64,000 nucleotides of DNA, from positions 2,976,001-3,040,000 of the forward strand of contig OZ250169.1 in NCBI GenBank assembly GCA_965237955.1, written 5' to 3'. Below the pieces are notes generated by a model that made no database searches, was not told where the DNA came from, and worked only from the letters and a program-made list of their open reading frames with translations. This document shows, piece by piece, positions 301-61,442 of the stretch; position 1 is the stretch's first letter, and the number at the start of each line of letters is the position of its first letter. The DNA is from Candidatus Marinacidobacterales bacterium (GTDB taxonomy: Bacteria; Acidobacteriota; Vicinamibacteria; Marinacidobacterales; SMYC01). A program made the translations under genes and the position numbers.

Positions 301-360
301 GGCCGGCAGACCGGAGACTAATCAAGTTCGGTGCGCGCGGATGAATAAATAGAAGGCACA
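301..360 (-). repeat. R3 terminus (TGTGCCTTCTATTTATTCATCCGCGCGCACCGAACTTGAT), left end of an rve-integrase element; 7 copies
   Basis: Termini at 360(-), 2561(+), 11784(+), 15747(+), 27161(-), 34103(+) and 60946(-). Longer copies run into MISSFVRALVSAFKARRELALENVALRQQLAV, an integrase N-terminus. Confidence 0.85.
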
Positions 361-420
361 ACCCGCATTACTCAGTGGTCTGGGAAAGCCCCGGGCCGCG
401 GCTCCACCCCTACCCGGGGG

Positions 421-470
421 CGTCCACAAAACTCGGCCCTTTTGAAATAGACCACAAATCAGCAGTTTAG
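421..470 (+). repeat. R1 terminus, variant or damaged copy
   Basis: CGTCCACAAAACTCGGCCCTTTTGAAATAGACCACAAATCAGCAGTTTAG followed by the same inner module as at 7467 and 30820. Confidence 0.75.
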
Positions 471-676
471 ACGCCCTTGGAATCCGCGCAGAATCGAGGG
501 TATTTCGCGCCGCAGGGCTGACTTCCGACCCCTGGGCTGCGGGTGGCGAGCGACAGCCCACCGGTGGTGCGCACGGCTGGCTCAAATCGGCTGCGGGGCG
601 AGCTACGGCCAGTGAACTGCGCACCCGGAAGTCCCTCATTAGACTGGACTTTATCGAGCAGAAGAGCGAACGTTCG

Positions 677-1111
677 GTGATGCCGCAGGATACAGGGGTT
701 GGCCGGAACGTCGTTTTGGACGGTTTGGACTTCGCCAGCTTACAGCGGGTCTGGGAGCAGACCTTTGGGGCTGCTCCTCCAAGCTCGCTCTCGCGTGTTT
801 TCCTGCGCCGCGTTCTCTTGCACGAACGCCAGTGCCGGACCCATGGCGGGCTTTCGGCCGCAACCCGGCGCGCTCTGGCTGCCATGGCGAACGAGACACC
901 AAGCTCCGGCGCTCCCGCAGGGTCCGTTTCTGCCGGCACCCATCTCGTCCGCGAGTGGAATGGCCGGACCTACCAGGTCGAGGTACTCGACAACGGCTAT
1001 CGGTTCGATGGCAAAACCTATCCGTCCCTCACTACCATCGCAAAGCGAATCACCGGCACCCACTGGTCTGGACCACGCTTTTTCGGTCTGACGCCCAAGC
1101 GCAAGGCCTAA
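677..1111 (+). CDS. DUF2924 domain protein
   Basis: GTHLVREWNGRTYQVEV...YPSLTTIAKRITGTHWSGPRFFGL signature, directly upstream of a serine recombinase. Confidence 0.85.
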   Translation: MMPQDTGVGRNVVLDGLDFASLQRVWEQTFGAAPPSSLSRVFLRRVLLHERQCRTHGGLSAATRRALAAMANETPSSGAPAGSVSAGTHLVREWNGRTYQVEVLDNGYRFDGKTYPSLTTIAKRITGTHWSGPRFFGLTPKRKA

Positions 1112-1112
1112 C

Positions 1113-2097: not shown

Positions 2098-2151
2098 CGT
2101 CCTGTGCCAAAACTCGGCCCTTTTGAAATAGACCATAAATCAGCAGCTTAG
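2098..2151 (+). repeat. R1 terminus (54 bp: CGTCCTGTGCCAAAACTCGGCCCTTTTGAAATAGACCAYAAATCAGCAGCTTAG); 28 copies in window
   Basis: + starts: 2098, 5485, 7467, 17076, 17800, 19989, 22793, 26103, 26217, 30820, 34042, 47824, 50934, 55820, 60298, 60410, 60769, 61001. - ends: 5802, 11875, 12439, 18461, 26948, 28182, 37562, 48140, 59498, 61345. Some copies keep only the outer 20-30 bp. Confidence 0.95.
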
Positions 2152-2390
2152 TGTCTGTGTTTGCGACCGGGCCAAGGGCCGTAGGCTTTACAATCGTCTG
2201 GCCGAGGGTGTTATCTTCAGTTCCATGATGACGTACCACGTGCAATTCCTACTGCTCGTTCTGGCTGGGTCAACCGCCAGCAGCTAAAGGTTGGTGGTTC
2301 CTGGCGGTTCAGAAAAAGCGAGATCGACCAGTGGGCAGCAGGGAACGCGGCCTGGCCGGATGACACGGGAGAGCCGGTGGAGCGGAAGCA

Positions 2391-2612: not shown

Positions 2613-3139
2613 GGTGCTTCCGTCATCAAGTGTTGGTGAGATGACGCTAAGACTTTACGGTGCATTAAGTTACAGAAAAAATAGCGCTCGTGACCTTCGC
2701 TGCGCGCTAAATGGAGCGTAAGCGCCTCTTTTGCAAAGGGATGCGTACACATCACCAACAGTAAACAGCGCAAGCACCCGGCGTAGCGTGGAAACAGCTC
2801 AGGAACACGATTCGATATTCGCTCTCGACTAGGTGGTCATCTGCATGGTGACGGCCCGCCCAAAGGGTAGCTCTGCTCAATGGTTGTCGCGGGTCCCGCC
2901 GTCCACGCCGCATCGACTGCTCGCTTGTAACGTTGCCAGTGGATCAAGTTTCGGCACAGGACGCCATCGCATGTAATAATGATGTCGGCGTGCACACGAA
3001 GATGTTGCTGAACGTCAGGCACCGCCTGGTCAGCCCAGTCTGCATCGCCGAAAGAACTGTGTCCCTTCGAAATCAGGCTCAAACTCTAGCACGTGAGCGG
3101 GTTACGCGGCGGCCACCAACACTTGATTTCAGAAGCACC
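2613..3139. mobile_element. MITE-like element with R4 terminal inverted repeats (GGTGCTTCCGYCATCAAGTGTTGG)
   Basis: GGTGCTTCCGTCATCAAGTGTTGG at 2613 and CCAACACTTGATTTCAGAAGCACC ending 3139. Further R4 copies near 5701, 15978, 35945, 47910, 51070, 53210 and 60520. Confidence 0.7.
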
Positions 3140-3166
3140 CGGGTCGAAGTGGAGCGGGTTTAGCTT

Positions 3167-3778
3167 GTGAAACTCCCAAGCCATTCTCTATTACTGCCCG
3201 GTCTTCTCGTCGCGCTCTCCCAGCCTGTCGCCGGACGCGAGAAGTTTCCCGGCCGTATCGGTGGCGAAGGCCGCATCGGCCAAGCGGCACCCCCCTTCGA
3301 GCTAAAAGCGTGGTTGAACGCGGATCCGCTCGAGCCGGCCGACTTGAAGGGAAATGTACTACTCGTCCGTTGGTGGACGGACACTTGTCCCTTTTGCTCC
3401 ACGACGGCGCCCGTGCTGCGAGAGCTCAACCGCAAGTACCGAGGTCGGGGCCTCCGGGTCATCGGCATCTTTCACCCCAAGCCGCCCGGCGATAGGAGCG
3501 TCGAACGGCTGCGGCGGGCGACCGAGCGCTTCGGCTTCACCTTCCCGGTGGCCCTCGACGCGGATTGGATAGCGCTCCACCGCTGGTGGCTCGACCACGA
3601 GGTACAGGCGTGGACCTCCGTTTCCTTCCTCGTCGACAAGCAGGGTGTCGTCCGCTACGTCCACCCCGGCGGCGAGTACCATCTGGGAGAAGCTGGACTC
3701 CACTGGCGGAACCACGAAAGCTGCCATCGGGAATACCGCGAGATAGAAGACACCATTCTCAAACTCCTCGACAACTAA
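3167..3778 (+). CDS. TlpA/AhpC-TSA family thioredoxin-fold protein, exported
   Basis: Signal peptide, WWTDTCPFC CxxC motif, SFLVDKQGVVRY. Confidence 0.8.
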   Translation: MKLPSHSLLLPGLLVALSQPVAGREKFPGRIGGEGRIGQAAPPFELKAWLNADPLEPADLKGNVLLVRWWTDTCPFCSTTAPVLRELNRKYRGRGLRVIGIFHPKPPGDRSVERLRRATERFGFTFPVALDADWIALHRWWLDHEVQAWTSVSFLVDKQGVVRYVHPGGEYHLGEAGLHWRNHESCHREYREIEDTILKLLDN

Positions 3779-3886
3779 TCCCCACGAGGAGCAACGCCGC
3801 CAGCGCGAAAAAGGACGAGGAATTTTACGGTAGAATTAGCGGGTTCGGGCGCTCAACGCCTCGATTCTGGCTCGGGAAAGGCACGG

Positions 3887-4756
3887 ATGATGAAAAAGAC
3901 CGTGTTTTTGGTTTCAGCAGCAACGTGGGTCGTGACTGGTCTCGCGGCCGCCCAGCCGGACTTCGACGCCGTGGAAATGACGGTGTATCCGGTCGTGGGC
4001 CAGGTGTCCTACATCGAAGGCGCCGGCGGGAACATCGGGCTCTTCGTCGGTGAGGACGGCGTGTTCTTGATCGATGATCAATATGCTCCGTTGACTGACA
4101 AGATTGTTGCCGCAGTGCGAACCGTTTCCGACAAACCGATTCGCTTTCTCGTCAACACTCACATGCATCCGGATCACACCGGCGGCAATGAGAATTTTGG
4201 AAAAATGGGAACGCTCATCTTCGGTCACGACAACGTCCGGGCGCAGATGGCCAAGGCCGGTTACGACCAAGATCCGCCGCTCGTTACTTACGGCGACGAC
4301 ATGTCGTTCCATATCAACGGCGAGACCGTGTACGTGTTCAAGACACCGGACGCGCACACGAACAACGATTCCTACATCGTGTTCAAGGACTCGAACGCCG
4401 TCCATACCGGCGATATCTACCGAACGACGAGCTACCCCTACATCGACACTGCCAACGGCGGCAGGTTTCTCGGTACGATCAAAGCGCTCGACCTTCTCGT
4501 CGAGGTTTCGAACGCCGACACCAAGATCATCCCGGGCCACGGTGCGACGTCCAACGTCAAAGAAGTAAGAGCGTGGCGCAACATGCTCTTGGTCATCCGG
4601 GATCGGGTTCAGTCGGCCATCGCCGACGGCAAGACGCTGGAACAGATACAAGCGGCAGGGCTGACGAAAGAATACGACGAGCGTTGGGATAGCGGCCAGC
4701 GTATCGGCGGCGCAGCTGCCATGCTCGAATCCGCGTACAAAGATTTCGCACCGTGA
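3887..4756 (+). CDS. MBL-fold metallo-hydrolase (cyclase-like), exported
   Basis: Signal peptide, NTHMHPDHTGGN, AHT, HTGD and IIPGHG motifs. Confidence 0.9.
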   Translation: MMKKTVFLVSAATWVVTGLAAAQPDFDAVEMTVYPVVGQVSYIEGAGGNIGLFVGEDGVFLIDDQYAPLTDKIVAAVRTVSDKPIRFLVNTHMHPDHTGGNENFGKMGTLIFGHDNVRAQMAKAGYDQDPPLVTYGDDMSFHINGETVYVFKTPDAHTNNDSYIVFKDSNAVHTGDIYRTTSYPYIDTANGGRFLGTIKALDLLVEVSNADTKIIPGHGATSNVKEVRAWRNMLLVIRDRVQSAIADGKTLEQIQAAGLTKEYDERWDSGQRIGGAAAMLESAYKDFAP

Positions 4757-5241
4757 GCTTGATAGCGGCTGTACTCATTGCTTCCGGTTTGGGTTTTGAC
4801 GCCCCAGCGGAGTGGGTGTCGAAGCTGTCGTCTTCTTCGATGCGCGTCGCCGTTTGGGAGCTCACCGGCGACGACGCTCCTGCCGAAGTCGTGATCTTCT
4901 ATTTCGGTGAGGGATCTGGAGGCGGTGTCGAAGCCAACCTCGCACGTTGGTTCGGCCAGTTCGAGCAACCGGACGGTTCGAGCACGCGCGACAGAGCGAC
5001 CATCACCGAGCGCACCGTGAACGGACTCGAGCTCACCGTCGCAGACATGCGCGGGACGTTCGTCGCTCCGGTAAGGCCCGGAGCGCCACAGCGCAACGAC
5101 CGTCCTGGATACCGGATGATCGGCGCCGTTGCCGAAGGAGGCACGGGCCCGTGGTACATCCGCGTGCTCGGCCCCGAAGCGACGATGGCGAAATGGGAAG
5201 CGAGCGTCGAGGATTTTCTCTCCTCGCTCCGCCTCGAATAG
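4753..5241 (+). CDS. Hypothetical exported protein
   Basis: GTGA overlap with the upstream stop; GGGVEANLARWFGQF conserved-looking motif. Confidence 0.75.
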   Translation: MSLIAAVLIASGLGFDAPAEWVSKLSSSSMRVAVWELTGDDAPAEVVIFYFGEGSGGGVEANLARWFGQFEQPDGSSTRDRATITERTVNGLELTVADMRGTFVAPVRPGAPQRNDRPGYRMIGAVAEGGTGPWYIRVLGPEATMAKWEASVEDFLSSLRLE

Positions 5242-5484
5242 ACGCTAAGGCGGAACGAGGCGCTCGAGCCCATTATCTTTGGGGGCAGTCAGCTAGTTTT
5301 TCGTCAACATCGCCTGGACATATCTGTGCTGTGATCCGCAAAAGAGAAGATCGCGTATTGACGGGCAGACAGCCATGGGAGTTGAGGTCCTGCGAACTCG
5401 TCTTCGCCTCGGTGGAGGTTCTGCACTCTGTCGCTGCCGGGCCACCGACGCAATAACGTGCTTGAGAAAGAACGCTTTGTTCCC

Positions 5485-5802
5485 CGTCCTGTGCCAAAAC
5501 TCGGCCCTTTTGAAATAGCCGATAAATCAGCAGCTTAGCGTCTGTGTTTTGCGACGGTGCCAAGGGCTGTGGGCTTTACAATCGTCTGGCTCGAGGGTGT
5601 TATCTTCGGATCCATCATGACGTACCATGTGCAAATCCTACTGTTGGTCAGGCAGCCGTTGTTCGATCGGGCAGCCCTTGCTGCTCACACAGACCTCATG
5701 GGTGCTTCCGCCATTAAGTGTTGGTAAAATGACGCTAAGACTTTGCGGTGCATTAAATTACAGCCATGGTCTTTCAAAAGGGCCGAGTTTTGGCACAGGA
5801 CG
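5485..5802. mobile_element. 318-bp MITE with R1 inverted termini
   Basis: 31-bp TIR CGTCCTGTGCCAAAACTCGGCCCTTTTGAAA at both ends. A second, inverted copy lies at 47824-48140. No TSD. Confidence 0.85.
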
Positions 5803-5923
5803 GGTATGAGTCGCATCGTGTGCTCACTGGAGAAGAAGCGGTGACCGGCGCCATCACTTTGCCATTGGGGGTTCACCAACGATTCGATGTTTGGTCGGCA
5901 AGTAAAACCTAGGGAGTGCAAGA

Positions 5924-7393
5924 ATGAAGACTGTCTTTCTTTCGGTTTTGTCTATCGTTGTGTCCACCGCGCTTGGAAGCACAACGCTCCTGACGGCAAC
6001 GCCCAGCACCGCCGGGGAACCGCTACTGGCCCAAGGCGAAGAACCACTCACCGACCGCTATCGAGAGGCCGCCGGCCGGATTCTCGGTGCCGCGCTTCAA
6101 GATGTGGAAGGCTGGGAGAAAGTCACGTACCTCACGACCGATATAGGCCACCGGCTGAGTGGCTCGTCTGCACTGGAAAGAGCCATCGAGTGGGCGCATG
6201 CCCGGATGAAAGCAGAGGAGCTTCAGAACGTGCGGCTCCAACCCGTCAAGGTCCCTCACTGGGTGCGGGGGAAAGAGTACGCGGAGGTCGTGTCGCCGGT
6301 CGGGAAACCGCTCGGGATACTGGGGCTCGGAGGAAGCGTGGGAACGCCGCCGGAGGGGATCACCGCCCCGATCGTGGTGGCGCGAAGCTTCGACGAGCTC
6401 GAAGCGCTCGGGCGGGAGAAGGTGGAAGGGAAGACGGTGCTCTATGCCCCACCCTGGATGGACTATTCGCGTAATGTAGCGTACCGCCGCGACGGCGCTT
6501 CGCGAGCGGCGAAACTGGGAGCGGTTGCAGCTCTCGTCCGCTCGGTGACCGATCGGAGCCTCTATACTCCCCACACCGGCGCCATGCGATACGCGGATGA
6601 CATCCCCCGGATTCCCGCCGCCGCGGTAACGGTCGAGGACATGTATTGGATGCAACGGATGACGAAAGCCGGGCACGAGGTCGAGGTCAAGCTCTATATG
6701 GAAGCCAAGAATCTACCGGAAGCAGATTCCGCCAATGTGATCGCGGAGATCGTGGGAAGCGAAGAGCCGGAAGAGATCGTTGTGATGGGCGGACACTTTG
6801 ACTCATGGGACGTGGGCCAAGGCGCCCACGACGACGGCGCGGCCTGCATTGCCGCCTGGCAGGCTCTCAAGATCTTGAGAGATCTCGGGTTGCGCCCGCG
6901 CCGAACGTTGCGGGTCGTGCTTTGGACGAACGAGGAGAATGGGCTCGCGGGTGGTCGAGCCTACCGCGAGTCGGTTGGAGACGACATCGGCAATCACGTC
7001 GCCGCCATCGAAATGGATGGCGGAGTCGAAAAACCCATCGGATTCGGCTTCGGCCTCGAAGGCGTCAACCGCGAGGACACGAGCAATCCGACCTACGAGG
7101 TCGCTCTCGAAAAGCTCCGACAGATCGGGCGTTTACTGGACGGTATCAACGCCGGCCAGATTCAGCGCGGAGGAGGGGGAGCGGACATCGGCCCTCTCAT
7201 GCAAGATGGCGTTCCCGGGCTGGCTGCTCGAAACGTGCACAACCTCTACCTGGACTTGCATCATACGCACGCTGACACGCTCGACAAGGTCGATCCTCAA
7301 GACTTCCGTCAGTCCATTGCCATACTGGCCGTCATGGGGTACGTGCTCGCCGACATGCCCGGCCGGCTGGTTCCCACGGGGACAAACAAGTAA
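5924..7393 (+). CDS. M28 family metallopeptidase (carboxypeptidase Q-like)
   Basis: Signal peptide; GGHFDSWDVGQGAHDDG, NEENG and HHTHADT motifs. Confidence 0.9.
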   Translation: MKTVFLSVLSIVVSTALGSTTLLTATPSTAGEPLLAQGEEPLTDRYREAAGRILGAALQDVEGWEKVTYLTTDIGHRLSGSSALERAIEWAHARMKAEELQNVRLQPVKVPHWVRGKEYAEVVSPVGKPLGILGLGGSVGTPPEGITAPIVVARSFDELEALGREKVEGKTVLYAPPWMDYSRNVAYRRDGASRAAKLGAVAALVRSVTDRSLYTPHTGAMRYADDIPRIPAAAVTVEDMYWMQRMTKAGHEVEVKLYMEAKNLPEADSANVIAEIVGSEEPEEIVVMGGHFDSWDVGQGAHDDGAACIAAWQALKILRDLGLRPRRTLRVVLWTNEENGLAGGRAYRESVGDDIGNHVAAIEMDGGVEKPIGFGFGLEGVNREDTSNPTYEVALEKLRQIGRLLDGINAGQIQRGGGGADIGPLMQDGVPGLAARNVHNLYLDLHHTHADTLDKVDPQDFRQSIAILAVMGYVLADMPGRLVPTGTNK

Positions 7394-7730
7394 AGCAGGT
7401 CTTCCCGTGTTGGACAGCCCAGCAATGGTTTGTTTGGGCAGGGGTCCTGAGTCCTCTCCTGAATCCCGTCCTGTGCCAAAACTCGGCCCTTTTGAAATAG
7501 ACCACAAATCAGCAGCTTAGACGCCCTTGGAATCCGCGCAGAATCGAGGGTATTTCGCGCCGCAGGGCTGGCTTCCGACCCCAGAGCTGCGGGTGGCGAG
7601 CGACAGGCCCACCGGGGGTGCGCACGGCTGGCTCAAATCGGCTGCGGGGCGAGCTACGGGCAGCGGACTGCGCACCCGGAAGTCCCTCATTAGACTGGAC
7701 TTTATCGAGCACAAGAGCGAACGTTCGGGG

Positions 7731-8201: not shown

Positions 8202-9288
8202 TGCCTTGGTGCACAACTCCGATAGAGGCCGAGAGCTCGCTTGGCCCCGACTCCCATCATCCGGTCATCTCGCTATCAGGCATCCCGAGCGCCGTCATCG
8301 TGTTGAGAATCTTGCACCCGATCCTTGCCTCGACTCTCTGTGCCGCCAACCCTCTCGCTCGCATCGCTGAGCCCACGATAGCCTTGTAGCGATGGAACGT
8401 TGTCTCGACTTTGCTCCGTTTGCTGTAGCCCGATTCTGTGTGCCACTTTCGTTTGCCGAGCCGAGCTTGTGCTGCAATGTTGCGATTACGCTGTCGGCTG
8501 CTCGCCGGCCCCGATGCGAGCTGGGCGCCCTTGCGCGGCGGTATCAGCACCCTCGGCGAGCGATGAGCGCTGTGATTCTCGATCGCCTCATAGACGCCGC
8601 TGGCGTCGTATGCGGTGTCAGCTCTGGCCGATGAGATGGGACTGTCGATCTGTCCGACAAGCGATGCAACCCGCGATGAATCGCGGGCTCTTTTGCTCGT
8701 CAGCTCGCCGGCGACGACTTCGCCACTCTGCTCGTCGACACACAGATGGAGCTTGCGATAGTCCCTGCTCTTTGGTGCTCTGCGCAGCTGGCCGGCGTGG
8801 ACAGCGAGACCGCTGCTGTCGATCAAGATGTGCAACGGCGTCTTCTGCTTGTCTTGGTAGAAGGGGACCTTACCCAGCTTCGCCTTGCGCCTCGAGATCG
8901 TGGTGTGATTGGGCACATCATTGTCTAGCTTCATCAGAGCGAACAACGATCGCAGCAATCCCTCGCTCTGCCTAGATGACAGATGAAACACCATGCCCAG
9001 GGTGACAGCCGTCTCGATGGCGTGGTTCGAGTACTTGCGTTGACGGCCCGGTTTCCTCCTCCTCGGCCGGGGCGCGTCCCAGTTCACAAGCTTGCCGGCG
9101 GTGAGCGAGATCCAGACGGTCAGGCTCCCGCGGTTGCGCAGACCCGCCTCATATTCACGCCAATTCCTCACGCGATAGGCCTTCTTCACATACTTCCGCT
9201 GAGTGCGTTTGAAAATGCTCATGGGGAACCTCGAATCCGTGAGTAAAGGACAATTGTGGACCGAGATCGCGAGTTGTGCACCAAGGCA
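8202..9288 (-). mobile_element. IS5 family (IS903-like) element A, copy 1
   Basis: 18-bp TIR TGCCTTGGTGCACAACTC; 1087 bp; no TSD. Confidence 0.9.
8257..9222 (-). CDS. IS5 family transposase
   Basis: YRVRNWREYEAGLRNRGSLTVW, IDSSGL, RKLHL, ADTAYD and GYSKRSKVET motifs. Confidence 0.9.
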   Translation of the reverse strand: MSIFKRTQRKYVKKAYRVRNWREYEAGLRNRGSLTVWISLTAGKLVNWDAPRPRRRKPGRQRKYSNHAIETAVTLGMVFHLSSRQSEGLLRSLFALMKLDNDVPNHTTISRRKAKLGKVPFYQDKQKTPLHILIDSSGLAVHAGQLRRAPKSRDYRKLHLCVDEQSGEVVAGELTSKRARDSSRVASLVGQIDSPISSARADTAYDASGVYEAIENHSAHRSPRVLIPPRKGAQLASGPASSRQRNRNIAAQARLGKRKWHTESGYSKRSKVETTFHRYKAIVGSAMRARGLAAQRVEARIGCKILNTMTALGMPDSEMTG

Positions 9289-9412
9289 CGCACTCGCTGG
9301 TATGATCCCCGAGGCGATAGGGGACATCCTTGCGCACGTCAGTGCGTTAACGTCGAACCTCGCTGTCATCTTCACGCTGAACCAAAACACTATGAGGGAA
9401 GGAGATATTTCA

Positions 9413-10960
9413 GTGTACAAATGGATCATTGGACTGATTCTCGCAGCCGTGCCGGTCCAGGCACAGCCGAACCGGAAAGCCCTGTGGTTGACCCATCCTG
9501 CCGAGGCACCAGAAGCAGCCCGCATGGTGAGCCATAAGTTATCTGCTGGTCAGCTAGTCCAGGCCAGAAGCCAGCGTGACGGCCAGATCTCAGGCCGGAC
9601 CCACGAACGGATGGACCAGCACCACCAGGGGGTGCGTGTCGTTGGAGGACAGTTAGTCTCTCATCAGGATTCCGGAAGCGTCCTTTCGGTAACTGGGAAC
9701 TTCTACGAGAACATACAGCTTGATACAACACCGTCGCTAACTGAATCCGAAGCACAGGACATTGCCCTCAGAGGTGAGGATGAGGGTGCATTTGTGGTCG
9801 GGAGTGCTGAGCTTGTCGTACTTCCCCTCGAGGAGCGGTTTCACCTCGCCTACTCATTCCACGTACGCAGCCCCGGCGGGCTCTTCGCCGTGTACGTTGA
9901 CGCACACTCCGGCGCCATCGTGCTGCGCTACGACGACACCCGCACCCAGAGCGTCATTGGATTGGGAATCGGCACCTGGGGCGACGAGAAGAAGATTAGC
10001 GTTGAGATGTCTGGCGGAGAGTATAGAGCCGTTGACGTGCTCCGGCCATTCAATATCAGAACCTACAATGTGAAATTCGACTTCCGCGCATGGGCCAGAT
10101 TAAGAGCCCAGGGCCATTTCTACATTGCCAAGGACAGCGACAACGAGTGGAGAGATGGAGCGGTCGTAGACGCACACACCTACTCAGGCTACACCTACGA
10201 CTACTATTTCAAGAGGCATGGCCGCTATGGCATCGATGACCTTGGCACCGCAGCAGTAAATTTCGTTCACTTCATCCATGCTGGACCACACCGCTACGCC
10301 GGCAGTGCCTTCTATTATTTCCCAGATAACTCGATGAATTTCGGGGATGGGGACGGAGTGAATACAACCTTCTACTCAAGCGCACTGGATATAGTCGCGC
10401 ACGAACTGACCCACGGAGTGGTCCATTTCACATCGAGTCTGATCTACCTCAATGAATCGGGAGCGCTGAACGAGGCTTTCTGCGACATCATAGGAACCTC
10501 CGCGGAGTTCTTCTTCCAGCCTCCAGGAAACGGGCGTAATATGGCGGATTGGGTGGAAGGAGAGGACATTTTCATCAACTTTGGGCCGTACTTCCGGTCT
10601 TTCTCGGATCCAAGCAGTGCAGGGAGTTACTACCCTGATCACTACAGCAAGCGTTATACAGGAACCCTTGACCGCGGCGGTGTTCACATAAACTCAAGCA
10701 TCGCCAACCACGCCTTCTACCTGATGGTCGAGGGCGGCACCAACCGAACTTCAGGTATAGCGGTGAACGGGCTCGGACGCAGCCAGATGGACAGGATTGA
10801 AAGCGTCTTCTACCGGGCCTTCACTCTGTATCTCGTGCCGAGCTCGAACTTCTCCGACGCCAGGCGAGCGACGCTATTGGCTGCCAGGGAACTCTACGGG
10901 CAGGGCAGCCCAGAGGAACGGGTAGTTACAGCGGGATGGAACGCCGTAGGCGTGCAATGA
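9413..10960 (+). CDS. M4 family (thermolysin-like) metallopeptidase with propeptide
   Basis: GTG start after GGAG; signal peptide; HELTH, GALNEA and GVHINSSI motifs. Confidence 0.92.
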   Translation: MYKWIIGLILAAVPVQAQPNRKALWLTHPAEAPEAARMVSHKLSAGQLVQARSQRDGQISGRTHERMDQHHQGVRVVGGQLVSHQDSGSVLSVTGNFYENIQLDTTPSLTESEAQDIALRGEDEGAFVVGSAELVVLPLEERFHLAYSFHVRSPGGLFAVYVDAHSGAIVLRYDDTRTQSVIGLGIGTWGDEKKISVEMSGGEYRAVDVLRPFNIRTYNVKFDFRAWARLRAQGHFYIAKDSDNEWRDGAVVDAHTYSGYTYDYYFKRHGRYGIDDLGTAAVNFVHFIHAGPHRYAGSAFYYFPDNSMNFGDGDGVNTTFYSSALDIVAHELTHGVVHFTSSLIYLNESGALNEAFCDIIGTSAEFFFQPPGNGRNMADWVEGEDIFINFGPYFRSFSDPSSAGSYYPDHYSKRYTGTLDRGGVHINSSIANHAFYLMVEGGTNRTSGIAVNGLGRSQMDRIESVFYRAFTLYLVPSSNFSDARRATLLAARELYGQGSPEERVVTAGWNAVGVQ

Positions 10961-11721
10961 AGACAATCATGAAAAGACTAAGTGTGTTGCTGTTTACGGT
11001 TGCACCGATGCTCCCACTTATCGCGGGTGCTCAGGAGGCCCCCGAGGAGAATAAAGCCAAGAAGTTCCAGTTCCTGTTCAATGTGTACTACCAGTCGATG
11101 GTCCGGGATTTCAGTGAATCCACGAGCTTCACGAAGGACCTTGAGCAAGGCACTACTACCCGGTCGTACTCGGGAGGAGACGGCTCTTCGTTCGAGATGG
11201 GCGGGGCGTTTTCGCTGACGCCGAAGTTAGCGATCGTGACAAGCGTTGAAATCTTGTCTTCAGTCCATGAAGGCACCTTGGAGATCTCCTCTCCCCATCC
11301 CCTGCTGTTCAACCGGCCCCGAGAGACAAGCATGCCAGCCGATGCCCTCGACTACTACGAGTTCACCGTGCACGCAAATGTTACGTATAGGATTCCTGTG
11401 TCCAAGATGGAAATTGAACTCTTTGCCGGGCCAAGCATGTTCTTTCCAGAAATCGAATTAATTGACCAGGCAACAACCGACTCACAGTACCCGTTCGATG
11501 AACTGACAATCACATCCTCGAGGAATGTCACCCTGGAGGAGAGAGCCATCGGATTCAATGTAGGAGGAGGTGTGACCTACTACTTGACTGAGTCGCTAGG
11601 ACTCTCCTTCGTGACGAGATACAGCCGGGCCAGCCTGGAGGCCATGCGGGAGGGCGGGCAGCCGATCTCATTGGAGCTTGGAGGTTTACGGGTTGGAGGC
11701 GGTTTCAGATTGAGGTTTTAA
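10957..11721 (+). CDS. Outer-membrane beta-barrel protein
   Basis: ATGA overlap with the M4 stop; signal peptide; amphipathic strands; C-terminal ...GFRLRF. Confidence 0.8.
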   Translation: MKTIMKRLSVLLFTVAPMLPLIAGAQEAPEENKAKKFQFLFNVYYQSMVRDFSESTSFTKDLEQGTTTRSYSGGDGSSFEMGGAFSLTPKLAIVTSVEILSSVHEGTLEISSPHPLLFNRPRETSMPADALDYYEFTVHANVTYRIPVSKMEIELFAGPSMFFPEIELIDQATTDSQYPFDELTITSSRNVTLEERAIGFNVGGGVTYYLTESLGLSFVTRYSRASLEAMREGGQPISLELGGLRVGGGFRLRF

Positions 11722-11999
11722 GAGGCAAGCCGTTAAACGGTAATAATCAGGGGTGCGGCAGCCGCCAGTGGTGGATCTGTCCCTGTGCCTTCTATTTATT
11801 CATCCGCGCGCACCGAACTTGCTAAGCTGCTGATTTATGGTCTATTTCGAAAGATCCGAGTTTTGGCACAGGACGCGGTCCTAATCGACACCCCCTCAGA
11901 AGACTAGCCCTAAATTTGCGATTTCTCCTTTTTTCTCAATCCCTTACAGGCTTCAGGACGGGTACTAACTAACACTTGATTGCGGAACCACGTCACCCT

Positions 12000-12221
12000 T
12001 CAGAACCATCGCTTCACGAGATTCGCGATAAGCGTCAAGACGACCGATGCAAGGACCATCGACGTGATAGGGATGAACACGCGCGTGTTTTCTCCATGGT
12101 AGCGAATATCGCCCGGAAGTCGGCCGAACCAAGAAAACCCGCCGTAGTAGACGGCGACACCGACGGCGGCGAGCAGCACGCCAGCGCCAATGATCAGAAG
12201 GCCGAGTGATCGTGGCTCCAT
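12000..12221 (-). CDS. DUF2905 family small membrane protein
   Basis: WFGRLPGDIRY...VFIPITSM motif between two TM helices. Confidence 0.85.
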   Translation of the reverse strand: MEPRSLGLLIIGAGVLLAAVGVAVYYGGFSWFGRLPGDIRYHGENTRVFIPITSMVLASVVLTLIANLVKRWF

Positions 12222-12273
12222 CGTCTACCCGAACTCGGAGAGTCTCTCTGTCAGCAAATCGTAGAATCCGTCC

Positions 12274-12367
12274 TGTGCTCCGCAATAAAGAAGATTGGCC
12301 AGAAGCAGCCGAACATAGCAGGTCTAGAACGCGCAATCAACGCTGGATCGATTTTTTGCGGAGCACA
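12274..12367. mobile_element. 94-bp MITE with R5 termini (TGTGCTCCGCAA)
   Basis: TGTGCTCCGCAA ... TTGCGGAGCACA. Solo R5 ends with the same inner sequence end at 16279 and 27223. Confidence 0.7.
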
Positions 12368-48140: not shown

Positions 48141-48150
48141 GGGTCAGGCG

Positions 48151-48843: not shown

Positions 48844-49937
48844 CAACTTCGTCTCTCCGTGCGCGCTAAAGTGGGTGGCCCGAACATCAAAGCCTGTGCC
48901 ACACGCTCGAGGGAGCTTCCTGCTGCGGATTCGGGAAAGTCGAGCATGAAAGGTCTGCGTTTGCGGGTCGCCTTCCAAACGCTCTCGTCGAAGCGCACCG
49001 AGCCGATGGCGTCGATAGCGATTCCGAGATGGCGACGGCAGACGCTGGCCATCGACGCGCCGAGACCCTCGTCCTCGGGGTAGCGGACCTGATTGATCAG
49101 AAGCCGCGGCCGAAACGAGAAGGCTTGCTCCTTGAGATAGCGTCCGGTAGCACTGTCGCGACGCTCCACAGCGTCGAGAAGATCGATGGGCGTGCGGATG
49201 CCGTCGCGATTCTTTTGGTCCATCGCTTGCTCAACTACTTTGCGCACCGGGCTCGACTTCAAAGCGCGCCACAGATGACGGTAAAAACTCATTTTCAGGA
49301 AGCGGTAGGCGTTCTCGATCGAGCTCGGCTCGGGGATCGCGACGAGGAGCCCTTGCTCCGCAATGAGAAAGAAGTCGACGATGTTGAACGAGATCCCAGC
49401 ACCGATGTCGAGCAAGACGAAATCGGCGTCCACGGCAGCGATACAGGACAAGAGTCGGGTTTTCTGACCATATTTCAGATTCGACGCGGCGAGATGGTCG
49501 TGTGCGCCGCTGATGAGTCCGAGGTTCTTGACGCCAGTCTCGAGAATCACGTCGTCAATCGACTCGACGCGCCGACTGATGAAATCGCTCAGCGTGAGCG
49601 ACGGTGTGGACAAGCCCAAGCAAGTATGGAGATTCGCTCCGCCGAGGTCGGCATCGATAACCACCACTTTCTTGCCGTGCCGTGCAAGGGAGATCCCGAC
49701 GCTGCTCGTAATGATGCTCTTGCCAACGCCGCCTTTGCCGCCGCCAACCGCAATGATACGGCCTTTGCTAGGCTGCGCCTTCTTGCGCGCTGTCGCCGCA
49801 ACGACCGGATGCACCACTGGCGCAGGAGAGGATTCGGCAAAGGGCGCGACCGCGCTAGCGGCTTTGAGCTCTGGGTGCGCGCCCCACGAGCCAGTTGGGT
49901 CTGAAGCCGAGAGAGACTGTTTCGGATCCGAGTCCAC
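48843..49937 (-). CDS. MinD/FlhG-like P-loop ATPase
   Basis: GGGKGGVGKS, IDADLGGANL and LLDIGAG motifs. Confidence 0.88.
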   Translation of the reverse strand: MDSDPKQSLSASDPTGSWGAHPELKAASAVAPFAESSPAPVVHPVVAATARKKAQPSKGRIIAVGGGKGGVGKSIITSSVGISLARHGKKVVVIDADLGGANLHTCLGLSTPSLTLSDFISRRVESIDDVILETGVKNLGLISGAHDHLAASNLKYGQKTRLLSCIAAVDADFVLLDIGAGISFNIVDFFLIAEQGLLVAIPEPSSIENAYRFLKMSFYRHLWRALKSSPVRKVVEQAMDQKNRDGIRTPIDLLDAVERRDSATGRYLKEQAFSFRPRLLINQVRYPEDEGLGASMASVCRRHLGIAIDAIGSVRFDESVWKATRKRRPFMLDFPESAAGSSLERVAQALMFGPPTLARTERRS

Positions 49938-50049
49938 GGTACGTCCCCCTTTTTAATAAGTTGAACGATCTAAGGATACCGGCAGGACTACCAAACAAGA
50001 ATCTAAGACAGAAATTAAGGGTCCACAAGAATAAGTCGTTAGTAATAAG

Positions 50050-50721
50050 GGGTCTACGCGAATTCGTGTGGGTAAGTCCTGACGGAAAACAGTGTAACTC
50101 ATTGTGTGGAAAAGGTATCGAGTACTTCATCAGGTGCTGAAAAGTGGTCCATTTTTAAGATAGGCTAACCGAGTGAAAAATTCCCAGTCGATCCGCTCGC
50201 TGTTTGCGCTGCCAGGTTTCTTGGCTGGTGCCGGATTGAAGGGTGTATTCGATGACCGATACGCCCGCATCATCCAGCTCAAGAGGCGAAAAAAACAGCT
50301 GTGTGCTCTTACTGTGGGCAACGGTGCCGGGGGCGCTATGACAAGCAAGTGTGCCGGGTCCGCGACCTGTCGTTGGCAGGCTGGCGGATCTATCTGGAAT
50401 ACGAGCGTTGGCGCGTCAACTGTCCTGGGTGCGGCGGTTTGCAGGTAGAACACCTGGACTGGCTGGCGAACAACTCGCGCTACACCCAGCGTTTTGCGAC
50501 GCATGTGGGCAAGCTGTGCCGGGATATGCCGGACAAGGCGGCGGCCGAGATGGAACGTCTGCGCCTCCTAGTTGAAGGGGTCAACAACAAAATCCGTGTG
50601 CTGCAACGACGCGCCTACGGCTATCGCGACGAGGAATATCTCAAGCTGAAGATCGTGGCGGCATTCCTTCCGCCATTACCCAGAAATGCCGTCTTCAACC
50701 CACACGAATCCGCGTAGACCC
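50050..50721 (+). mobile_element. Internally deleted ISL3 family element with 8-bp TSD
   Basis: TIR GGGTCTACGCGRATTCGTGTGGG; TSD GTAATAAG on both sides; zinc-finger N-terminus joined to EGVNNKIRVLQRRAYGYRD. Confidence 0.9.
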
Positions 50722-51297
50722 GTAATAAGGATAGTAGCGAACGCGCCCGAACCGTGTCAAGTGGTCTAGCATTCGGCGTTCAAGTTCACGCTCCGAATCC
50801 TACGGTGCTGAACTTTCGCTCGGACCGATTCGGCACGGCGCAAAGTGCTGGTTGCTGAATGCTTACGACTGAACGCTGATCTACTGTACGCGCATCGGCG
50901 AGCCCAGCGACACGATAGCAGGGATTGGGACCCCGTCCTGTGCCAAAACTCGGCCCTCTTGAAATAGACCACAAATCAGCAGCTTAGACGCCCTTGGAAT
51001 CCGCCAACCCTTAGGCTGCGTGGCGAGCTACGGGCAGTGAACTTCGCACCCGGAAGTCCCTCATTAGACGGTGCTTCCGCAATCAAGTGTTGGTGGCTGC
51101 CGCGTAACTCGCTCGTGTGCTAGAGTTTGAGCCTGATTTCGAGAGACGCAGTTCTTTCGGCGATGCGGGCTGGGCTGACCACACGGTGCCTGACGTTCAG
51201 GGACACCTTCGTGCGCACGCCGACATCCTTAAATTAATGGCGTTCGCCGACACAGGCAGGCCAGCTGACACTAGCATTCAAACACGGGGCGTAGCAA

Positions 51298-57116: not shown

Positions 57117-58201
57117 GGCGTTGTTGCACCGCTCTGGCTGAGAGCGAAATCCGCCTATGGTGGTGGCCGAGGTATGTTCGAGCATGAAGTATCCCAAGCG
57201 CTGCCAGTACAAGCACGCGAAGCAGAAGAAGTACCACGTTCGCAACTGGGCGGAATACAACGAAGGGCTGCGCCGCCGGGGCGATTTGACAGTCTGGTTT
57301 GACGAGGAGGCAATCGCGAACTGGAAGGCCGACAAGACCGGTAAGCCTGGCGGTCAACGGGTCTATTCAGACATGGCGATTGAAACGGGCCTGGTTGTCC
57401 GGATGGTGTACAAGCTCGCCTACCGACAAACCGAAGGCTTCTTGCACTCGATCGCCTCGCTTCTCGGGCTCGGTATCGAGATCCCGGACTACTCGACGTT
57501 GTGTCGGCGCTCGAGGTTGCTCCGCAAGAAGCTGCGGATTCCGAAAGCCGCGAGCACTCAACCCATCCACCTGATGATCGATAGCACGGGCTTGAGGATT
57601 CATGTTGGAACCGCCCGCAAACCGCCAAAGCTGCGCGCATGGCGCAAGTTGCACATCGCCGTTGATCGCGAGACAGGGAACATTGTTGCGTCCAAACTGA
57701 CGGCGTCACGAGCTCGCGACGCAACCCGAGTCCTCTCTTTGCTAACACAGATTCAAGCACCTCTAGTGTCGGTGGCGGCGGACAGTGCATACGACAAGGA
57801 AGCGGTCTACGAAGCCATCGAAGCGCACAGTCCTGGACGAAGGACGCGCGTGGTGATTCCGCCGCAACGAAACGCGACGCTCAGTCAGAATTCGAACACC
57901 GCCATGCAGGAGCGCGATCGCCATATTCGTGCAATCGAAAGACACGGCCGACGTGAATGGTACAAGCTCTCAGGCTACACCAAGCGAAGCATGGTGGAGA
58001 ACGCGGTCTATCGTTACAAGGCGATCATCGGGCCGGAGATGCGGGCTCGAACGTTGGCGAGGCAACGAGTTGAACACCGAATTGGGTGCGAGATACTCAA
58101 CAAGATGGCTGCGCTCGGGATGCCCGATACGTACTGCGCCGGGTGACTCTGCAACCGGCACAGGGAGGTCAGCGATTTGCTCCGGGCCGTGCAACAACGC
58201 C
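57117..58201 (+). mobile_element. IS5 family element B, copy 2 (transposase 57184-58146)
   Basis: 1085 bp, same TIRs. Confidence 0.92.
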
Positions 58202-59391
58202 ACGGAGAGGCACCGGAACAGGACTTCGAGCACGCCTGGAAGGCCACCGGCGAGTCCATCAGGAACCGGCTGCGGCTCGGCTTCGACGTGCTGCTCCACT
58301 GCCGGGGTGGTCTGGGACGCGCCGGGACCATCACAGCCCGCCTGCTGGTGGAGTTGGGCGTGCAACCGGACGATGCGATCCGCCGCGTGCGCGACGCCCG
58401 CGAATGGACCATCGAGAACGGCTCCCAGCTGGCTCACGTGAGGCAGTGTTCGGCACAAGCACCATCGGTTCCATCCCGGACCGCGGACGACATCCACGAC
58501 CGGGCGCTCGGGGCCTTCCTCGGTCTGGCGGTGGGCGACGCGGTCGGCACGACGCTCGAATTCTGCTCCCGCGATACGCAGCCGCGTCTAGAAGACATGG
58601 TCGGTGGCGGCCCGTTCGATCTGCCGGCCGGCGCTTGGACCGACGACACGGCCATGGCGCTGGCCCTTGCCGACAGCCTGGCGGAATCCAAGACGCTCGA
58701 CTGCCGGGACCTGATGGACCGTTTCGTGAAGTGGTGGCGAGACGGAGACTACTCGTGGAGCGGAGACTGCTTCGACATCGGAAACACGACCTGCCAAGCG
58801 CTCACCCGGTACCTACGGACGGGTGACCCGGTCGCGGGTTCGGCCGATCCCTTGAGCGCAGGCAACGGCTCGCTGATGCGGCTCGCCCCCGTTGCGCTCC
58901 GGTTCAGGCACGACCGGCCGCGCCTGATCGCAGCAGCCGCCGACCAGTCCCGGACGACCCACGGAGCCGAGGAAGCAGTGGACGCCTGCCGGGCGTTCGG
59001 CGAGCTCCTAGCGGACGCCATCGCCGGGTCACCGTTCTCGGACGTTCTGGCTCCGAGACGGTTCACGGGAGCGGCGGCAATCACTCAGGTCATAGCCGGC
59101 AGCTGGCGAGGACGGACACGGGATACGATCCGCTCCAGCGGGTACGTCGTTCACACGCTCGAAGCCGCCATCTGGTCAGTCGCCCGCACCGGAGACTTCC
59201 GCGGCGCGGTGCTGCTCGCGGCCAACCTGGCCGACGACGCCGATACGGTAGCAGCAGTGACGGGGCAGCTCGCCGGCGCCCTCTACGGCCTGAACGCCAT
59301 CCCCGACCACTGGCGGGAACGCGTTGCCTGGAAGGATCGACTCCTGGCAGCGGCGCGGCGGTTGCTGTCGGAACCCCTTGCCGACCGGTAG
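58202..59391 (+). pseudogene. 5'-truncated phosphatase/ADP-ribosylglycohydrolase copy
   Basis: Matches 36266-37455; mirror image of 55927-57116. Confidence 0.85.
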
Positions 59392-59679
59392 AAGTTGGGT
59401 GGGTAGCCGAAGCACGGCTCTTGACCCGGTCGCAAACACAGACACTAAGCTGCTGATATTATGCTCTGTTTCAAAAGGCCGAGTTTTGGCACAGGACGGG
59501 GTAGGCGTCGATACTTACAACTCTGTAAATTTCAAGACAAAGTCTCACAATTTTAATATGCCTCTTCCGGTCATTCATTCTGTTTTGCTCAATAGGTCAA
59601 CGCAGTACAGCAAAAAATCTAGCAAAGCATTTGGCGCGATGTTCGATGAGATCAAGAAGCGCACACAAGCACTACAGAC

Positions 59680-59799
59680 GGTACTGTCAAGTTGAGGTCT
59701 CGAGCTCGGACCGGGCCGCTAGATAATGGGGCTCGAGTGCACCGCGTTGCCAACATCTTGGGGTCGGATCGGCCCTCAATGCCTCAACTTGACAGTACC
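59680..59799. mobile_element. 120-bp MITE with IS6-type TIRs
   Basis: Perfect 18-bp TIR GGTACTGTCAAGTTGAGG, sharing its outer 15 bp with the IS6 end at 42842. Confidence 0.85.
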
Positions 59800-60172
59800 G
59801 ATTGAACAGCTACTTTACGAGTTCGACACCCTTTCGAAGTGGAGTCGGCCCGTCACCGACGAAGAGCTTGCCCACGCGCAGGATAGCCTCGTCCGTGGTT
59901 TCGCCCAGCGTTTCGAGACGATGTCTCAAGTAGCCGGCGAGATAGCCGAGCTCGAGGGGTACGGTCTTTCCACCGACGAGCTCGGTCGCTACCCCGAGCG
60001 CATCGAGTCCATCACCAAGGATCAGCTCGAAGCTGCGGCCGCAAAATACCTGAACACGGACGAGGCCATTCTTTTGGTGGTGGGCGACGGCGAGAAAGTC
60101 GCGGACGGGTTGAGCGCGCTGGAATTCGGAAGCATGAAGCGGCTCGACGTAGAAGGAGAGTTGCTGGATTAG
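59800..60172 (+). pseudogene. M16 peptidase C-terminal fragment
   Basis: PVTDEELAHAQDSLVRGFAQRFET...IESITKDQLEAAAAKYL...LVVGD. Confidence 0.7.
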
Positions 60173-61442
60173 ATTCGCCCGTCTGGTGCAGAAGATAGGT
60201 TGGAAAGTCAGCTCCACCCTTGCCCTCTTGCCGGTCCCGGACTTAGAGTGTCGCGATGAGCTGGCGGCCATACCTCTACGCCGAGACTCAGCGTCCCCGT
60301 CCTGTGCCAAAACTCGGCCCTCTTGAAATAGACCACAAATCAGCAGCTTAGTGTCTGTGTTTGCGACCGGACCAAGGGCCGTAGGCTTTACAATCGTCTG
60401 GCCCGAGGGCGTCCTGTGCCAAAACTCGGCCCAGCCGGCATCGACGAAAGAACTGCGCTTCTCGAAATCAGGCTCAAACTCTAGCAGGCGAACGGGTTAC
60501 ACGGCAGGCGCCAACATTTGACTGCGGAAGCACCCGAGTTCCATTCTTCGCCGCTGTACGCTACTAGGTGGAGGACCGCGATATGCGTCTCCATCGCGCG
60601 CAATCGACCGAGAGAACGACGGCATAGCCTGTGAGAGGTAAGATAAGATGCGACACTTCCCCATTCCCGTATGGATCGCTGTGCTCGCCACGGGCTCGTG
60701 GCACAACCCCGCCACGGCCCAGACGTCGTGGCGGGGCTTGGTGGTTGCCCCCGAATCCCGTTGCTCCCCGTCCTGTGCCAAAACTCGGCCCTCTTGAAAT
60801 AGATCATAAATCAGTAGCTTAGTGTCTGTGTTTGCGGAGGTGCCAAGGGCTGAGCGCGAACAAACGACGAAATCATGCAGGTATGGTCCCGGCAGACCGG
60901 AGACCGATCAAGTTCGGGGCGCGCGGATGAATAAATAGAAGGCACAACCAGTCGACTTGCTTCCGCATCCCTCTTTGTCGCCCCTTGTTGGGCCCGACCC
61001 CGTCCTGTGCCAAAACTCGGCCCTTTTGAAACAGACCGCAAATCAACAGCTTAGAGGCCCTTGGAATCCGCGCAGAATCCAGGGTATTTCGCGCCGCAGG
61101 GCTGGCTTCCGACCCCTGGGCTGCGGGTGGCGGGCGACAGGCCCACCGGGGGTGCGCACGGCCGGCTCAAATCGGCTGCGGGGCGAGCTTGCAGGCAACG
61201 AACTACGCACCCGGAAGGAATACGTATCCGACCGCGATGCCGGATTCAAGCAGCCCTTGGAAAGGTGCAAACTGCTGACCCGCTGGGCGTTCGAGTATTT
61301 TGACCAGACGGAATGTCGTGGCTGTCCGAGTTTTGGCACAGGACGGGGAATAGGCGAGATCCCGCATGCCACCACATGCGGTTCGTTGTGACGAACTGGC
61401 CCGGTGACCAATTCACCGTCGCCGCATCTTTGGAGGTGATCA

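Follow-up and report, generated by a model that had tools for sequence, protein, structure and literature searches.

We analysed a stretch of 64,000 nucleotides (the window; G000:2976001-3040000) from the 8.13-Mb single contig of a Candidatus Marinacidobacterales bacterium (G000), a metagenome-assembled genome listed with 6.2% contamination. The window belongs to a system of islands, rich in short termini of four families (R1, R2, R3 and R5), that is real, large and lineage-wide. The R1, R2 and R5 termini are the ends and end-stumps of intact rve-type DDE insertion sequences (ISs) of one clade, and their most unusual feature is a polar, duplication-free joining at each end. From the statistics of the junctions, we consider it rather probable (about 0.6) that the transposase connects its ends singly to new flanks, by a single-end strand transfer to a half-site that would be resolved as a crossover. 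A bolder statement, to which we give slightly less than even odds, is that this undescribed, large DDE clade never inserts and acts as a half-site crossover recombinase, which would have built in this lineage an integron-like library of megabase size, made of whole genes and defence operons taken from ordinary chromosomal loci and traded at near-identity across genera and families.

Insertion sequences behind the termini

R1 is the terminal inverted repeat (TIR) of an intact IS of 1,428 bp; the two copies of this 102-bp repeat differ by 4 mismatches. The IS carries a single open reading frame (ORF) of 355 amino acids (aa). An intact example lies at G000:448590-450017 on the minus strand, and blastn found 22 full copies in G000 at 92-100% identity. 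Pfam identified an HTH domain and rve_3 in the transposase, with a DDE triad (D177-D243-E278) of which D177 and D243 are invariant and E278 is nearly invariant in 54 relatives. The structure model is confident (pLDDT 93.9) and its fold matches retroviral integrases, IstA, Mos1 and TnsB; a phmmer search against solved structures gave no significant match. The best NCBIfam match was IS481 (NF033577), at 102 bits against a cut-off of 224; the IS3 model (NF033516) scored 84 bits against a cut-off of 160, and the IS6 model had no match among the NCBIfam results. An R2 tip lies 104 bp upstream of a sibling rve gene (360 aa), and R5 forms the boundary of a 1,449-bp element whose rve gene encodes 357 aa. 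The R1 and R2 ends start with CGT, the R3 and R5 ends with TGT.

These results agree with the initial annotation of the window, made from the sequence alone, in that a rve-type DDE enzyme is involved. That annotation had regarded the termini as a stand-alone class of non-autonomous ends and had proposed to reconstruct an integrase; the termini belong instead to autonomous ISs, and reconstruction is unnecessary because intact R1 ISs are present in G000. The window's own rve gene (46799-47860) is an IS copy truncated at its start by another R1 tip.

At E <=1e-30 the R1 transposase has relatives in 2,101 protein clusters. Matches of 96-99% sit in records of Candidatus Marinacidobacterales (Acidobacteriota, Vicinamibacteria), and the annotation of plasmid relatives goes no further than 'integrase core domain-containing protein'. 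Relatives of 36-37% at two Streptomyces plasmid loci have similar flanks but lack a dense array of ends in 41 and 17 kb, so arrays do not occur with every member of the family. These relatives (L140:19830-21480 and L141) have TGC-type ends, with an ACCC flank again at one end, and one Streptomyces plasmid has 16 matching places. In G000, a further rve-type element at G000:299774-300823 (349 aa, TGT end), which was left out of the R1-R5 counts, has 18 copies, 17 of them in islands, without duplications. R1 ends also serve another gene pair: 61 R1 tips begin a unit of DUF2924 and a large serine recombinase (553 aa), as at window 30820-33179 and G000:608119-611598 (L004), and this unit recurs at 95-98% in four other genera.

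Termini cluster in islands

A motif scan of the window gave 29 R1, 9 R2, 7 R3 and 3 R5 termini. With an R2 variant at 20077 and an R5 hybrid at 12269/12274 the totals are 29, 10, 7 and 4, so that motif and repeat finding recovered the count of about 50 made at the outset. The same motif scan of the whole genome counted 513 R1, 186 R2, 117 R3 and 82 R5 tips. Where the real R1 motif matched the genome 513 times, each of five shuffled versions had 0 matches. The tips are not evenly spread: 876/898 lie inside islands, which sum to 1,809,854 bp or 22% of G000, and the clustering that the initial annotation had proposed to look for is therefore present. High-copy repeats make up 41% of the island DNA and unique sequence 35%, and the cumulative GC skew is largely flat across the islands.

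Cargo lies outside the termini, as had been noticed in the window. Across G000, tip pairs spaced 1-25 kb apart were outward-facing in 174 cases and inward-facing in 85, and pairs less than 450 bp apart were back-to-back in 135 cases and otherwise oriented in 41. A typical array unit thus consists of cargo, a short back-to-back linker and cargo again, and 72 of the 135 linkers combine different end families. R1 tips are often stumps, with less than 60 bp retained in 141/504. Their orientation (269 plus, 244 minus, over many islands) does not agree with a single entry site or a common polarity of the integron kind.

At window 12269 and at L151, L157 and L111, newer ends are joined 3-6 bp within older R1 or R2 tips, of which short remnants are left. 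The sequence of R1 itself resembles a TGT-type end preceded by a 5-bp tip.

Ends are joined to a polar half-site without duplication

In the flanks of the 513 R1 tips, position -2 was C or G in about 99%, position -1 was A in 1% and position -4 was G in 3%. The target half-site is A-Y-S-B^N-S-Y, with A at -4, Y at -3, C/G at -2 and any base except A at -1. The same polar motif was found at 96 left ends, 67 right ends and 61 recombinase-unit R1 ends. Empty alleles (n=158) showed it as A.68, Y.85, S 1.0, C.75 ^ N, S.95, Y.89, and their best symmetry score was only 0.26 across duplication lengths of -6 to 12. A mirror half-site motif, searched to -40 from the R1 joints, was not found. Blunt insertion into a palindrome was ruled out, because the empty alleles continue with N-S-Y.

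Target duplications were absent. Matching flanks in 94 R1 pairs were just 0-3 bp long, a search up to 44 bp in 136 paired elements gave none longer than 5 bp, and long direct repeats within 60 kb of paired ends numbered 0/201. Ordinary paired miniature inverted-repeat transposable elements (MITEs) with target duplications, once an alternative for this window, do not account for these pairs. Overlaps between opposite-strand junctions spread over 15-246 bp without a peak or a fixed length; a fixed IS1202-like duplication of 20-29 bp, hinted at first, was dropped after de-duplication of the opposite junctions. The empty-site set comprised 165 paired elements, among which three G000 copies appear twice. 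Both flanks were found elsewhere for 63 of them, which could be tested, and a contiguous empty site was found for 0/63. Circle junctions with abutted ends were not found among the R1 pairs.

The same rule holds at distant family members. Both ends were located in 15 of 24 loci at 54-86% identity, titled Myxococcota, Gammaproteobacteria, Deltaproteobacteria, Bryobacterales, Gemmatimonadota and others. All 30/30 flanks of these 15 elements had C/G at -2, no A at -1 and no G at -4, and direct repeats were <=2 bp. When the flanks of 12 distant elements were joined, an ORF ran across in 0/12; few of the flanks are coding (4/24).

Filled and empty flanks were unlike within 6 bp of the joint in 24/132 comparisons, at a background of 0.7% per base. 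Among the differing filled flanks, 11 change at -1, and 10 of these change towards C. These differences suggest carry-over from the previous flank, as a crossover would give. A switch of end family at the same base was seen in 6/100 shared junctions.

Other IS families as controls

Four ordinary IS families retain 4-8 bp duplications within the islands (3/4, 3/3, 5/6 and 5/6); these families lie mostly in the core genome. A TGT-ended IS of 304 aa and an IS3-type element in G000 retain repeats of 3-4 bp. The island-bound elements are the rve IS (45/46), the serine recombinase (44/44) and one IS5-type element (49/49). Flanks of IS5-type elements were symmetric (-8 C.65, -2 G.67) and served as a positive control; they validate the polarity test, so polarity remains the distinguishing sign of the rve ISs.

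The IS5-type (DDE_Tnp_1_5) families at window 8202-9289 and 57117-58201 have a symmetric target motif of the 9-bp type and almost no paired duplications. One of these families lacks them even in the core (48 full copies), and the other is the one confined to islands. This pattern suggests replicative rearrangement.

Cargo boundaries, donor loci and sharing between genomes

Cargo consists mostly of whole genes and operons. Among low-copy flanks, the 122 bp next to the tip appear coding in 13.5% (n=377) to 15.7% (n=492), compared with 46.7% of random low-copy island windows and 65.7% of core motif sites, and the coding share climbs to about 50% by 450 bp. Empty alleles lay within genes in 36/121 cases, against 70-80% expected. 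Among 101 pure tip-to-tip cargos, 84 held whole called genes only, 5 had a gene crossing the tip and 12 were gene-free; the median gap from gene edge to tip was 118 bp. Cargo blocks reach 9 kb and include whole operons.

The sulfatase cargo (window 18462-19988) has a terminus-free copy in the G000 core at 97.2% identity (G000:4127563-4129084), and the match between the two breaks off 3 and 1 bp short of the tips, which answers for this cargo the question raised at the outset of whether donor homology stops at the terminus. In G013 both junction positions are identical, at 99.3%. Sulfatase contigs of other studies (X3, X7 and X9) continue into the right R1 tip, and those of X3 and X7 have the G013-type left junction; X1 contigs carry the terminus-free form. 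X1 has the largest share of all runs and, as the window may come from that very sample, is left out of the independent evidence. Contigs from four studies cover 30/30 bins of window 11700-30900, and no contig spans the whole stretch. Two RNA runs with small shares are labelled sponge metagenome; no habitat is claimed.

Other cargos also have terminus-free counterparts. For the M28 peptidase cargo, these are homologous loci in G013 and G009 (94-96%) and one at G000:40159 (91%). The MinD-DnaJ block occurs in G008 (99.2%) in one copy without tips (L143) and one with the right tip only (L142), and the right 500 bp of the cargo at 59499-60297 match terminus-free G000:2121981-2122480 at 99.8%. The terminus-free block around the M28 gene (G000:36000-48300; L118, L119) is 91-96% identical among G000, G009 and G013, suggesting that cross-genus transfer occurs also outside the end-rich islands.

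We searched for shared blocks in five genomes, four of other genera (G008, G013, G015 and G018) and one of another family (G021). Window blocks of 1-3.4 kb recur in all five at 98-100%, with other neighbours and nested boundaries. In keeping with the initial annotation, the cargo holds whole genes and is not syntenic between genomes. Another genome's assembly is included in 33/100 groups of shared junctions. The exact R1 tip was found in 11/55 genomes of the order (6 genera, 2 families), with 80-447 copies in nine of them; it was found neither in G009, a congener of G013, nor in 300 other genomes of the phylum (0/300). G000 has ComEC; a search of it for the conjugation markers PF19044 and PF02534 gave no match.

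Proposed mechanism and rival explanations

In the mechanism that we propose, the 3'-OH of one end would attack a half-site, and the single-strand junction would be resolved by replication or short branch migration, in parallel with what PMC7885326 proposes for the targeted route of IS26. Attack inside adjacent DNA would remove everything as far as the site, and where naive DNA is attacked twice, the stretch in between would be captured. Crossovers would be tolerated only in dispensable DNA, hence the islands, and selection would retain junctions that spare useful genes. Blocks may travel between cells as DNA, probably by transformation, with recombination through near-identical IS bodies or tips; IS5, IS6, ISL3 and IS110 elements would help to build the same islands by ordinary routes. 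We infer all of the chemistry, the resolution step, the targeting of tips and the route of transfer. Such a single-end crossover would explain together the polarity, the missing duplications, the non-contiguous flanks, the nested trimming, the stumps, the hybrid linkers and the confinement to dispensable DNA.

Much of this could also arise without new chemistry, by ordinary two-ended replicative transposition (copy-in, as in IS26/IS6) with intramolecular deletions and inversions and homologous recombination, selection keeping the genes. The islands would then be pseudo-compound arrays of the IS26 type at a very large scale. Intramolecular replicative transposition strips flanking repeats and has been used to explain their loss in IS26 arrays (PMC7986276); the IS5-type and IS6-type elements of G000 are also without paired duplications, gene sparing is common to other IS ends, and the islands are rich in high-copy repeat. 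A concerted two-strand attack, however, should give both halves of the target as junctions, with a symmetric motif like that at the IS5-type ends. Only one half is seen, R1 junctions have a single polarity at both ends, distant single elements show this same polarity, and the duplications of other ISs persist within these islands. We consider this explanation unlikely, but worth keeping in view. The polarity at both ends would also be accounted for if the two ends, held in one complex, attacked two separate half-sites at variable distance, so that the target stretch is replaced or duplicated; IS1549 and IS1634, with their long variable repeats, are comparable. Two intact R1 IS copies do replace 706 and 1,152 bp of one repeated element, four R1-R1 micro-cargos measure 24-29 bp, and the opposite-strand overlaps lean short. 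These overlaps nonetheless lack a peak and not one of the 201 paired ends has a long direct repeat within 60 kb, and we give this possibility little weight. That the mosaic is an artefact of assembly or binning, with community repeats stitched into one contig, seems very improbable. The listed contamination, the near-identical blocks in other genera and the want of an independent contig across the whole stretch would fit it, but the junctions have a strong sequence motif and avoid coding DNA, a third of the shared-junction groups include other genomes' assemblies, nine genomes carry the exact tip in high numbers, and contigs of three studies run the sulfatase into its right R1 tip (two with the G013-type left junction), with the terminus-free form in one more.

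Several points weigh against single-end joining as the explanation. The mechanism would rest on junction statistics, and the empty alleles are paralogs or other strains and not true parents. In the five end-family switches examined, the flank 24-mers occur 3-68 times, so that independent hits on repeats could explain several of them. Paired duplications are missing in two IS5-type families as well, in one of these even within the core, and contiguous empty sites numbered 0/8 and 0/13 for them (one end definition is 1 bp off); missing duplications and non-contiguous flanks alone are therefore not specific. Gene sparing is likewise unspecific: island flanks look coding in 21% (IS5a), 30% (IS5b), 12% (ISL3) and 22% (IS6), and the gene calls come from a purpose-built dicodon model. 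Since other island IS ends spare genes alike, we attribute the sparing to selection and not to a capture step that reads genes, and the respect for gene boundaries suspected at first is no sign of such a step. Only 75/898 tips lie <=135 bp inside another end, about 2.5 times a rough expectation of 30, and an autonomous parent element of R3 was not found in G000.

Comparison with known systems

The islands work like IS26 arrays and resemble an integron in their output. No description of this IS family or of the islands was found in the open-access literature; subscription journals and ISfinder, where relatives may be listed, were outside the search. We take the system to be a variant of IS-built gene arrays, and a new mode of DDE recombination is a tentative possibility that falls somewhat short of an even chance.

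The islands share with IS26/IS6 arrays a DDE IS, the alternation of element with cargo, the frequent lack of flanking duplications and the presence of genes common to several taxa. The enzyme and size differ: IS6-type and about 800 bp with short inverted repeats there, a 355-aa rve_3 protein, 1,428 bp and a 102-bp TIR here. IS26 attacks naive sites symmetrically, duplicating 8 bp, and reserves single-end transfer for pairs of identical IS ends, where PMC7885326 proposes a strand transfer by one end with a Holliday-type intermediate. Here, in contrast, naive sites too have one-sided junctions, in both orientations and mostly with stumps, and the arrays reach 22% of the chromosome. Conservative end-to-end exchange of the IS26 kind would correspond to the 6/100 shared junctions that switch end family at the same base, several of which have repeated flanks.

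The R1 IS resembles IS481 and IS3 in its HTH and rve DDE core, D(35)E spacing and 5'-YGT ends, and IS481 also in its single ORF. The IS481 family makes a short target duplication, whereas the R1 IS makes none, and its transposase lies below the family cut-off (102 bits against 224). IS3 members start transposition by single-strand transfer; they have an OrfA/OrfB frameshift and a 3-4 bp duplication, unlike the R1 IS with its single 355-aa ORF, no duplication and a sub-threshold score (84 bits against 160).

Integrons likewise hold a library of single genes or small operons with little flank, reshuffled and common to several taxa, and a single-strand exchange resolved by replication may be a further parallel. 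An integron has the tyrosine recombinase IntI, an attI entry site and attC cassettes in one orientation; here the enzyme is of the DDE type, the cargo can be cut from ordinary chromosomal loci, and there is no common orientation or entry site. IntI was not found among the 53 window ORFs scanned against Pfam, a scan confined to the window and not extended to other islands. The repeats are IS TIRs in about equal numbers of both orientations and so not attC-like, although no attC model search was made.

TIME-COMP elements move as a unit and make 5-bp duplications (PMC4133298). They and MITEs share with the termini short non-autonomous ends around unrelated genes and the need for a transposase in trans; they differ in that here linkers are hybrid (72/135 mixed), duplications are absent and two flanks never come from one site. 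One end also captures neighbouring genes in ISEcp1 and IS91/ISCR. ISEcp1 is IS1380-type and captures adjacent genes from one end with a 5 bp duplication. IS91/ISCR captures genes by rolling circle and has a HUH enzyme and a polar target without duplication, as here, and no inverted repeats, whereas the R1 IS has a DDE fold and a 102-bp TIR. IS1202 subgroups make repeats of 5-6, 15-17 or 27-28 bp, and some members none (bioRxiv 10.1101/2022.12.17.520857). They too are DDE ISs; the paired elements here lack such repeats (none longer than 5 bp in 136 pairs, searched up to 44 bp) and any fixed overlap.

The expectation for a DDE transposase is a concerted attack on the two target strands that leaves a fixed duplication; the single-end route of IS26, which drives resistance-gene arrays, is the known exception. 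If true, one-sided joining at naive DNA as the normal mode would extend this exception to general gene capture, trimming and cassette formation. Cassette-like units would be made from ordinary genes, and G000 has the donor and captured forms of the sulfatase side by side. The islands show, too, that several families can hold a common gene pool amounting to a fifth of a chromosome, which bears on binning and on pangenome studies, and an intact element exists that can be assayed directly.

Features of the window

2098..2199, plus strand: R1 tip of the IS left-end type, truncating a serine recombinase gene
R1 tips, first ten: 2098+, 2963-, 5485+, 5802-, 7467+, 11875-, 12440-, 17076+, 17800+, 18461-
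R1 tips, next ten: 19989+, 22793+, 26103+, 26217+, 26948-, 28182-, 30820+, 34042+, 37562-, 47824+
R1 tips, last nine: 48140-, 50934+, 55820+, 59498-, 60298+, 60410+, 60769+, 61001+, 61345-
R2 tips: 13637-, 14007-, 15652+, 18042+, 18249-, 20077+ (variant), 20292-, 22915-, 28031+, 28159-
R3 tips: 360-, 2561+, 11784+, 15747+, 27161-, 34103+, 60946-
R5 tips: 12367-, 16279-, 27223-; hybrid at 12269
427-2097, 7467-8201 and 37563-38450: broken copies of the DUF2924 and serine recombinase unit
2964..5484, plus strand: cargo, AhpC/TSA redoxin (3167-3778), metallo-beta-lactamase-fold protein (3887-4756) and an unnamed ORF; copies at 98-99% in G013, G015 and G021 with differing boundaries
5485..5802: 318-bp R1/R1 linker with its ends back to back, built of an IS left end, an ISL3-type end and an R1 stump; repeated at 47824-48140
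5803..7466, plus strand: cargo, M28 peptidase 5924-7393 (PF04389)
8202..9289, minus strand: IS5-family element (DDE_Tnp_1_5), an ordinary co-builder of the island; more copies at 40976-42076 and 44691-45778
9290..11783, plus strand: cargo from IS5 to R3 tip, thermolysin-type M4 peptidase and a downstream ORF; paralog at 61443-63745
11784..11875: 92-bp hybrid linker, R3(+)/R1(-)
11876..12268, minus strand: cargo, DUF2905 (12003-12221)
12269..12440: hybrid linker, 5-bp R1 tip remnant and R5 end, with R5(-) at 12367 and R1(-) at 12440
12441..13600, minus strand: cargo, AhpC/TSA protein (12602-13360); 98% copy in G021
14008..14600, minus strand: cargo, CxxCxxCC protein (14022-14579), outside the R2 tip 14007-
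18462..19988, minus strand: cargo, sulfatase 18485-19969 (PF00884 1-300/301), 23 and 19 bp from the tips
20293..21149, minus strand: fused fragments of rve-family transposase genes
21205..22792, plus strand: cargo, sodium/glutamate symporter (21360-22730); 99% copies in G008, G015, G018 and G021 with nested boundaries
23820..25809, plus strand: cargo, RNase_H_2 / PD-(D/E)XK protein (24215-25717); 99.6-99.7% copies in G008
27224..28030, minus strand: cargo from R5 to R2, DUF2911 (27409-27927); 98% copies in G013 and G018
28413..30819, minus strand: cargo, MscS-type channel (28433-29686) and one ORF; in G013, G015 and G018 the copies (96-98%) are attached to R1 or R2 tips
30820..33179, plus strand: R1-ended unit of DUF2924 and large serine recombinase, the latter full length (31518-33179)
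34499..35945, minus strand: IS110-family element; second copy at 51772-53216
35946..37561, plus strand: cargo, phosphatase / ADP-ribosylglycohydrolase (35974-37455); partial copies lie inverted on either side of the IS5-type element at 57117-58201
38741..40855, plus strand: cargo, S9 prolyl oligopeptidase
43070..44690, plus strand: cargo with IS5-type elements on both sides, LamG-like protein; G013 has a copy at 97%
46636..47823, minus strand: R1 IS copy (98.9%), first codons cut by R1 tip 47824, transposase not intact
48141..50933, minus strand: cargo, MinD/ParA-like ATPase and DnaJ-HTH protein, with an ISL3 fragment inside
55820-59498: IS5-type element (57117-58201) between inverted duplications of about 1.3 kb of an ADP-ribosylglycohydrolase gene; outward R1-type ends close the block
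59499..60297, plus strand: cargo, unnamed ORF (59726-60172)
60298..61345: pile of nested ends (R1 60298+, 60410+, 60769+, R3 60946-, R1 61001+, 61345-)

Pfam agrees with the cargos named in the initial annotation (M28, sulfatase, DUF2911, MinD/ParA with DnaJ-HTH, DUF2905). Several of the blocks that it sets between termini are bounded on one side by IS5, IS110 or ISL3 instead; likewise 48141-50933 does hold the ATPase and the DnaJ-HTH protein, though not as undivided cargo, given the ISL3 fragment. The mobile genes are broken in the rve and serine recombinase copies but not in the IS5-type ORFs (304-329 aa), the two IS110 ORFs and the full-length recombinase. Read outward (5802 and all R1 tips), R1 contains a TTG that would open reading frames into the cargo and a hexamer that resembles a -35 box.

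Gene content of island cargo

We examined 72 proteins from 20 island stretches and compared 36 island proteins with PADLOC; both samples were hand-picked for large clean cargos and are not a census. The 72 proteins include restriction-modification types I, III, ISP and MmeI, a LexA-like/DnaE2 operon, TonB receptors, peptidases and transporters, and the PADLOC comparison added a type II pair, Septu, IetAS, PDC-S29 and PDC-S65. The four-gene LexA-like/DnaE2 operon, of the mutagenesis type, forms one cargo at G000:7889836-7895808 (L138), 30 and 52 bp from the tips. Defence cargo at L121, L135, L120, L123, L130 and L131 comprises Septu PtuAB, IetAS, PDC-S29, PDC-S65 and several restriction-modification operons. 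A four-gene operon at L135:403-7305, whose last protein is a 1,025-aa AAA_23 protein, and a ThiF cargo at L134:5489-7975 had no PADLOC match at 1e-30, and both may be undescribed defence systems.

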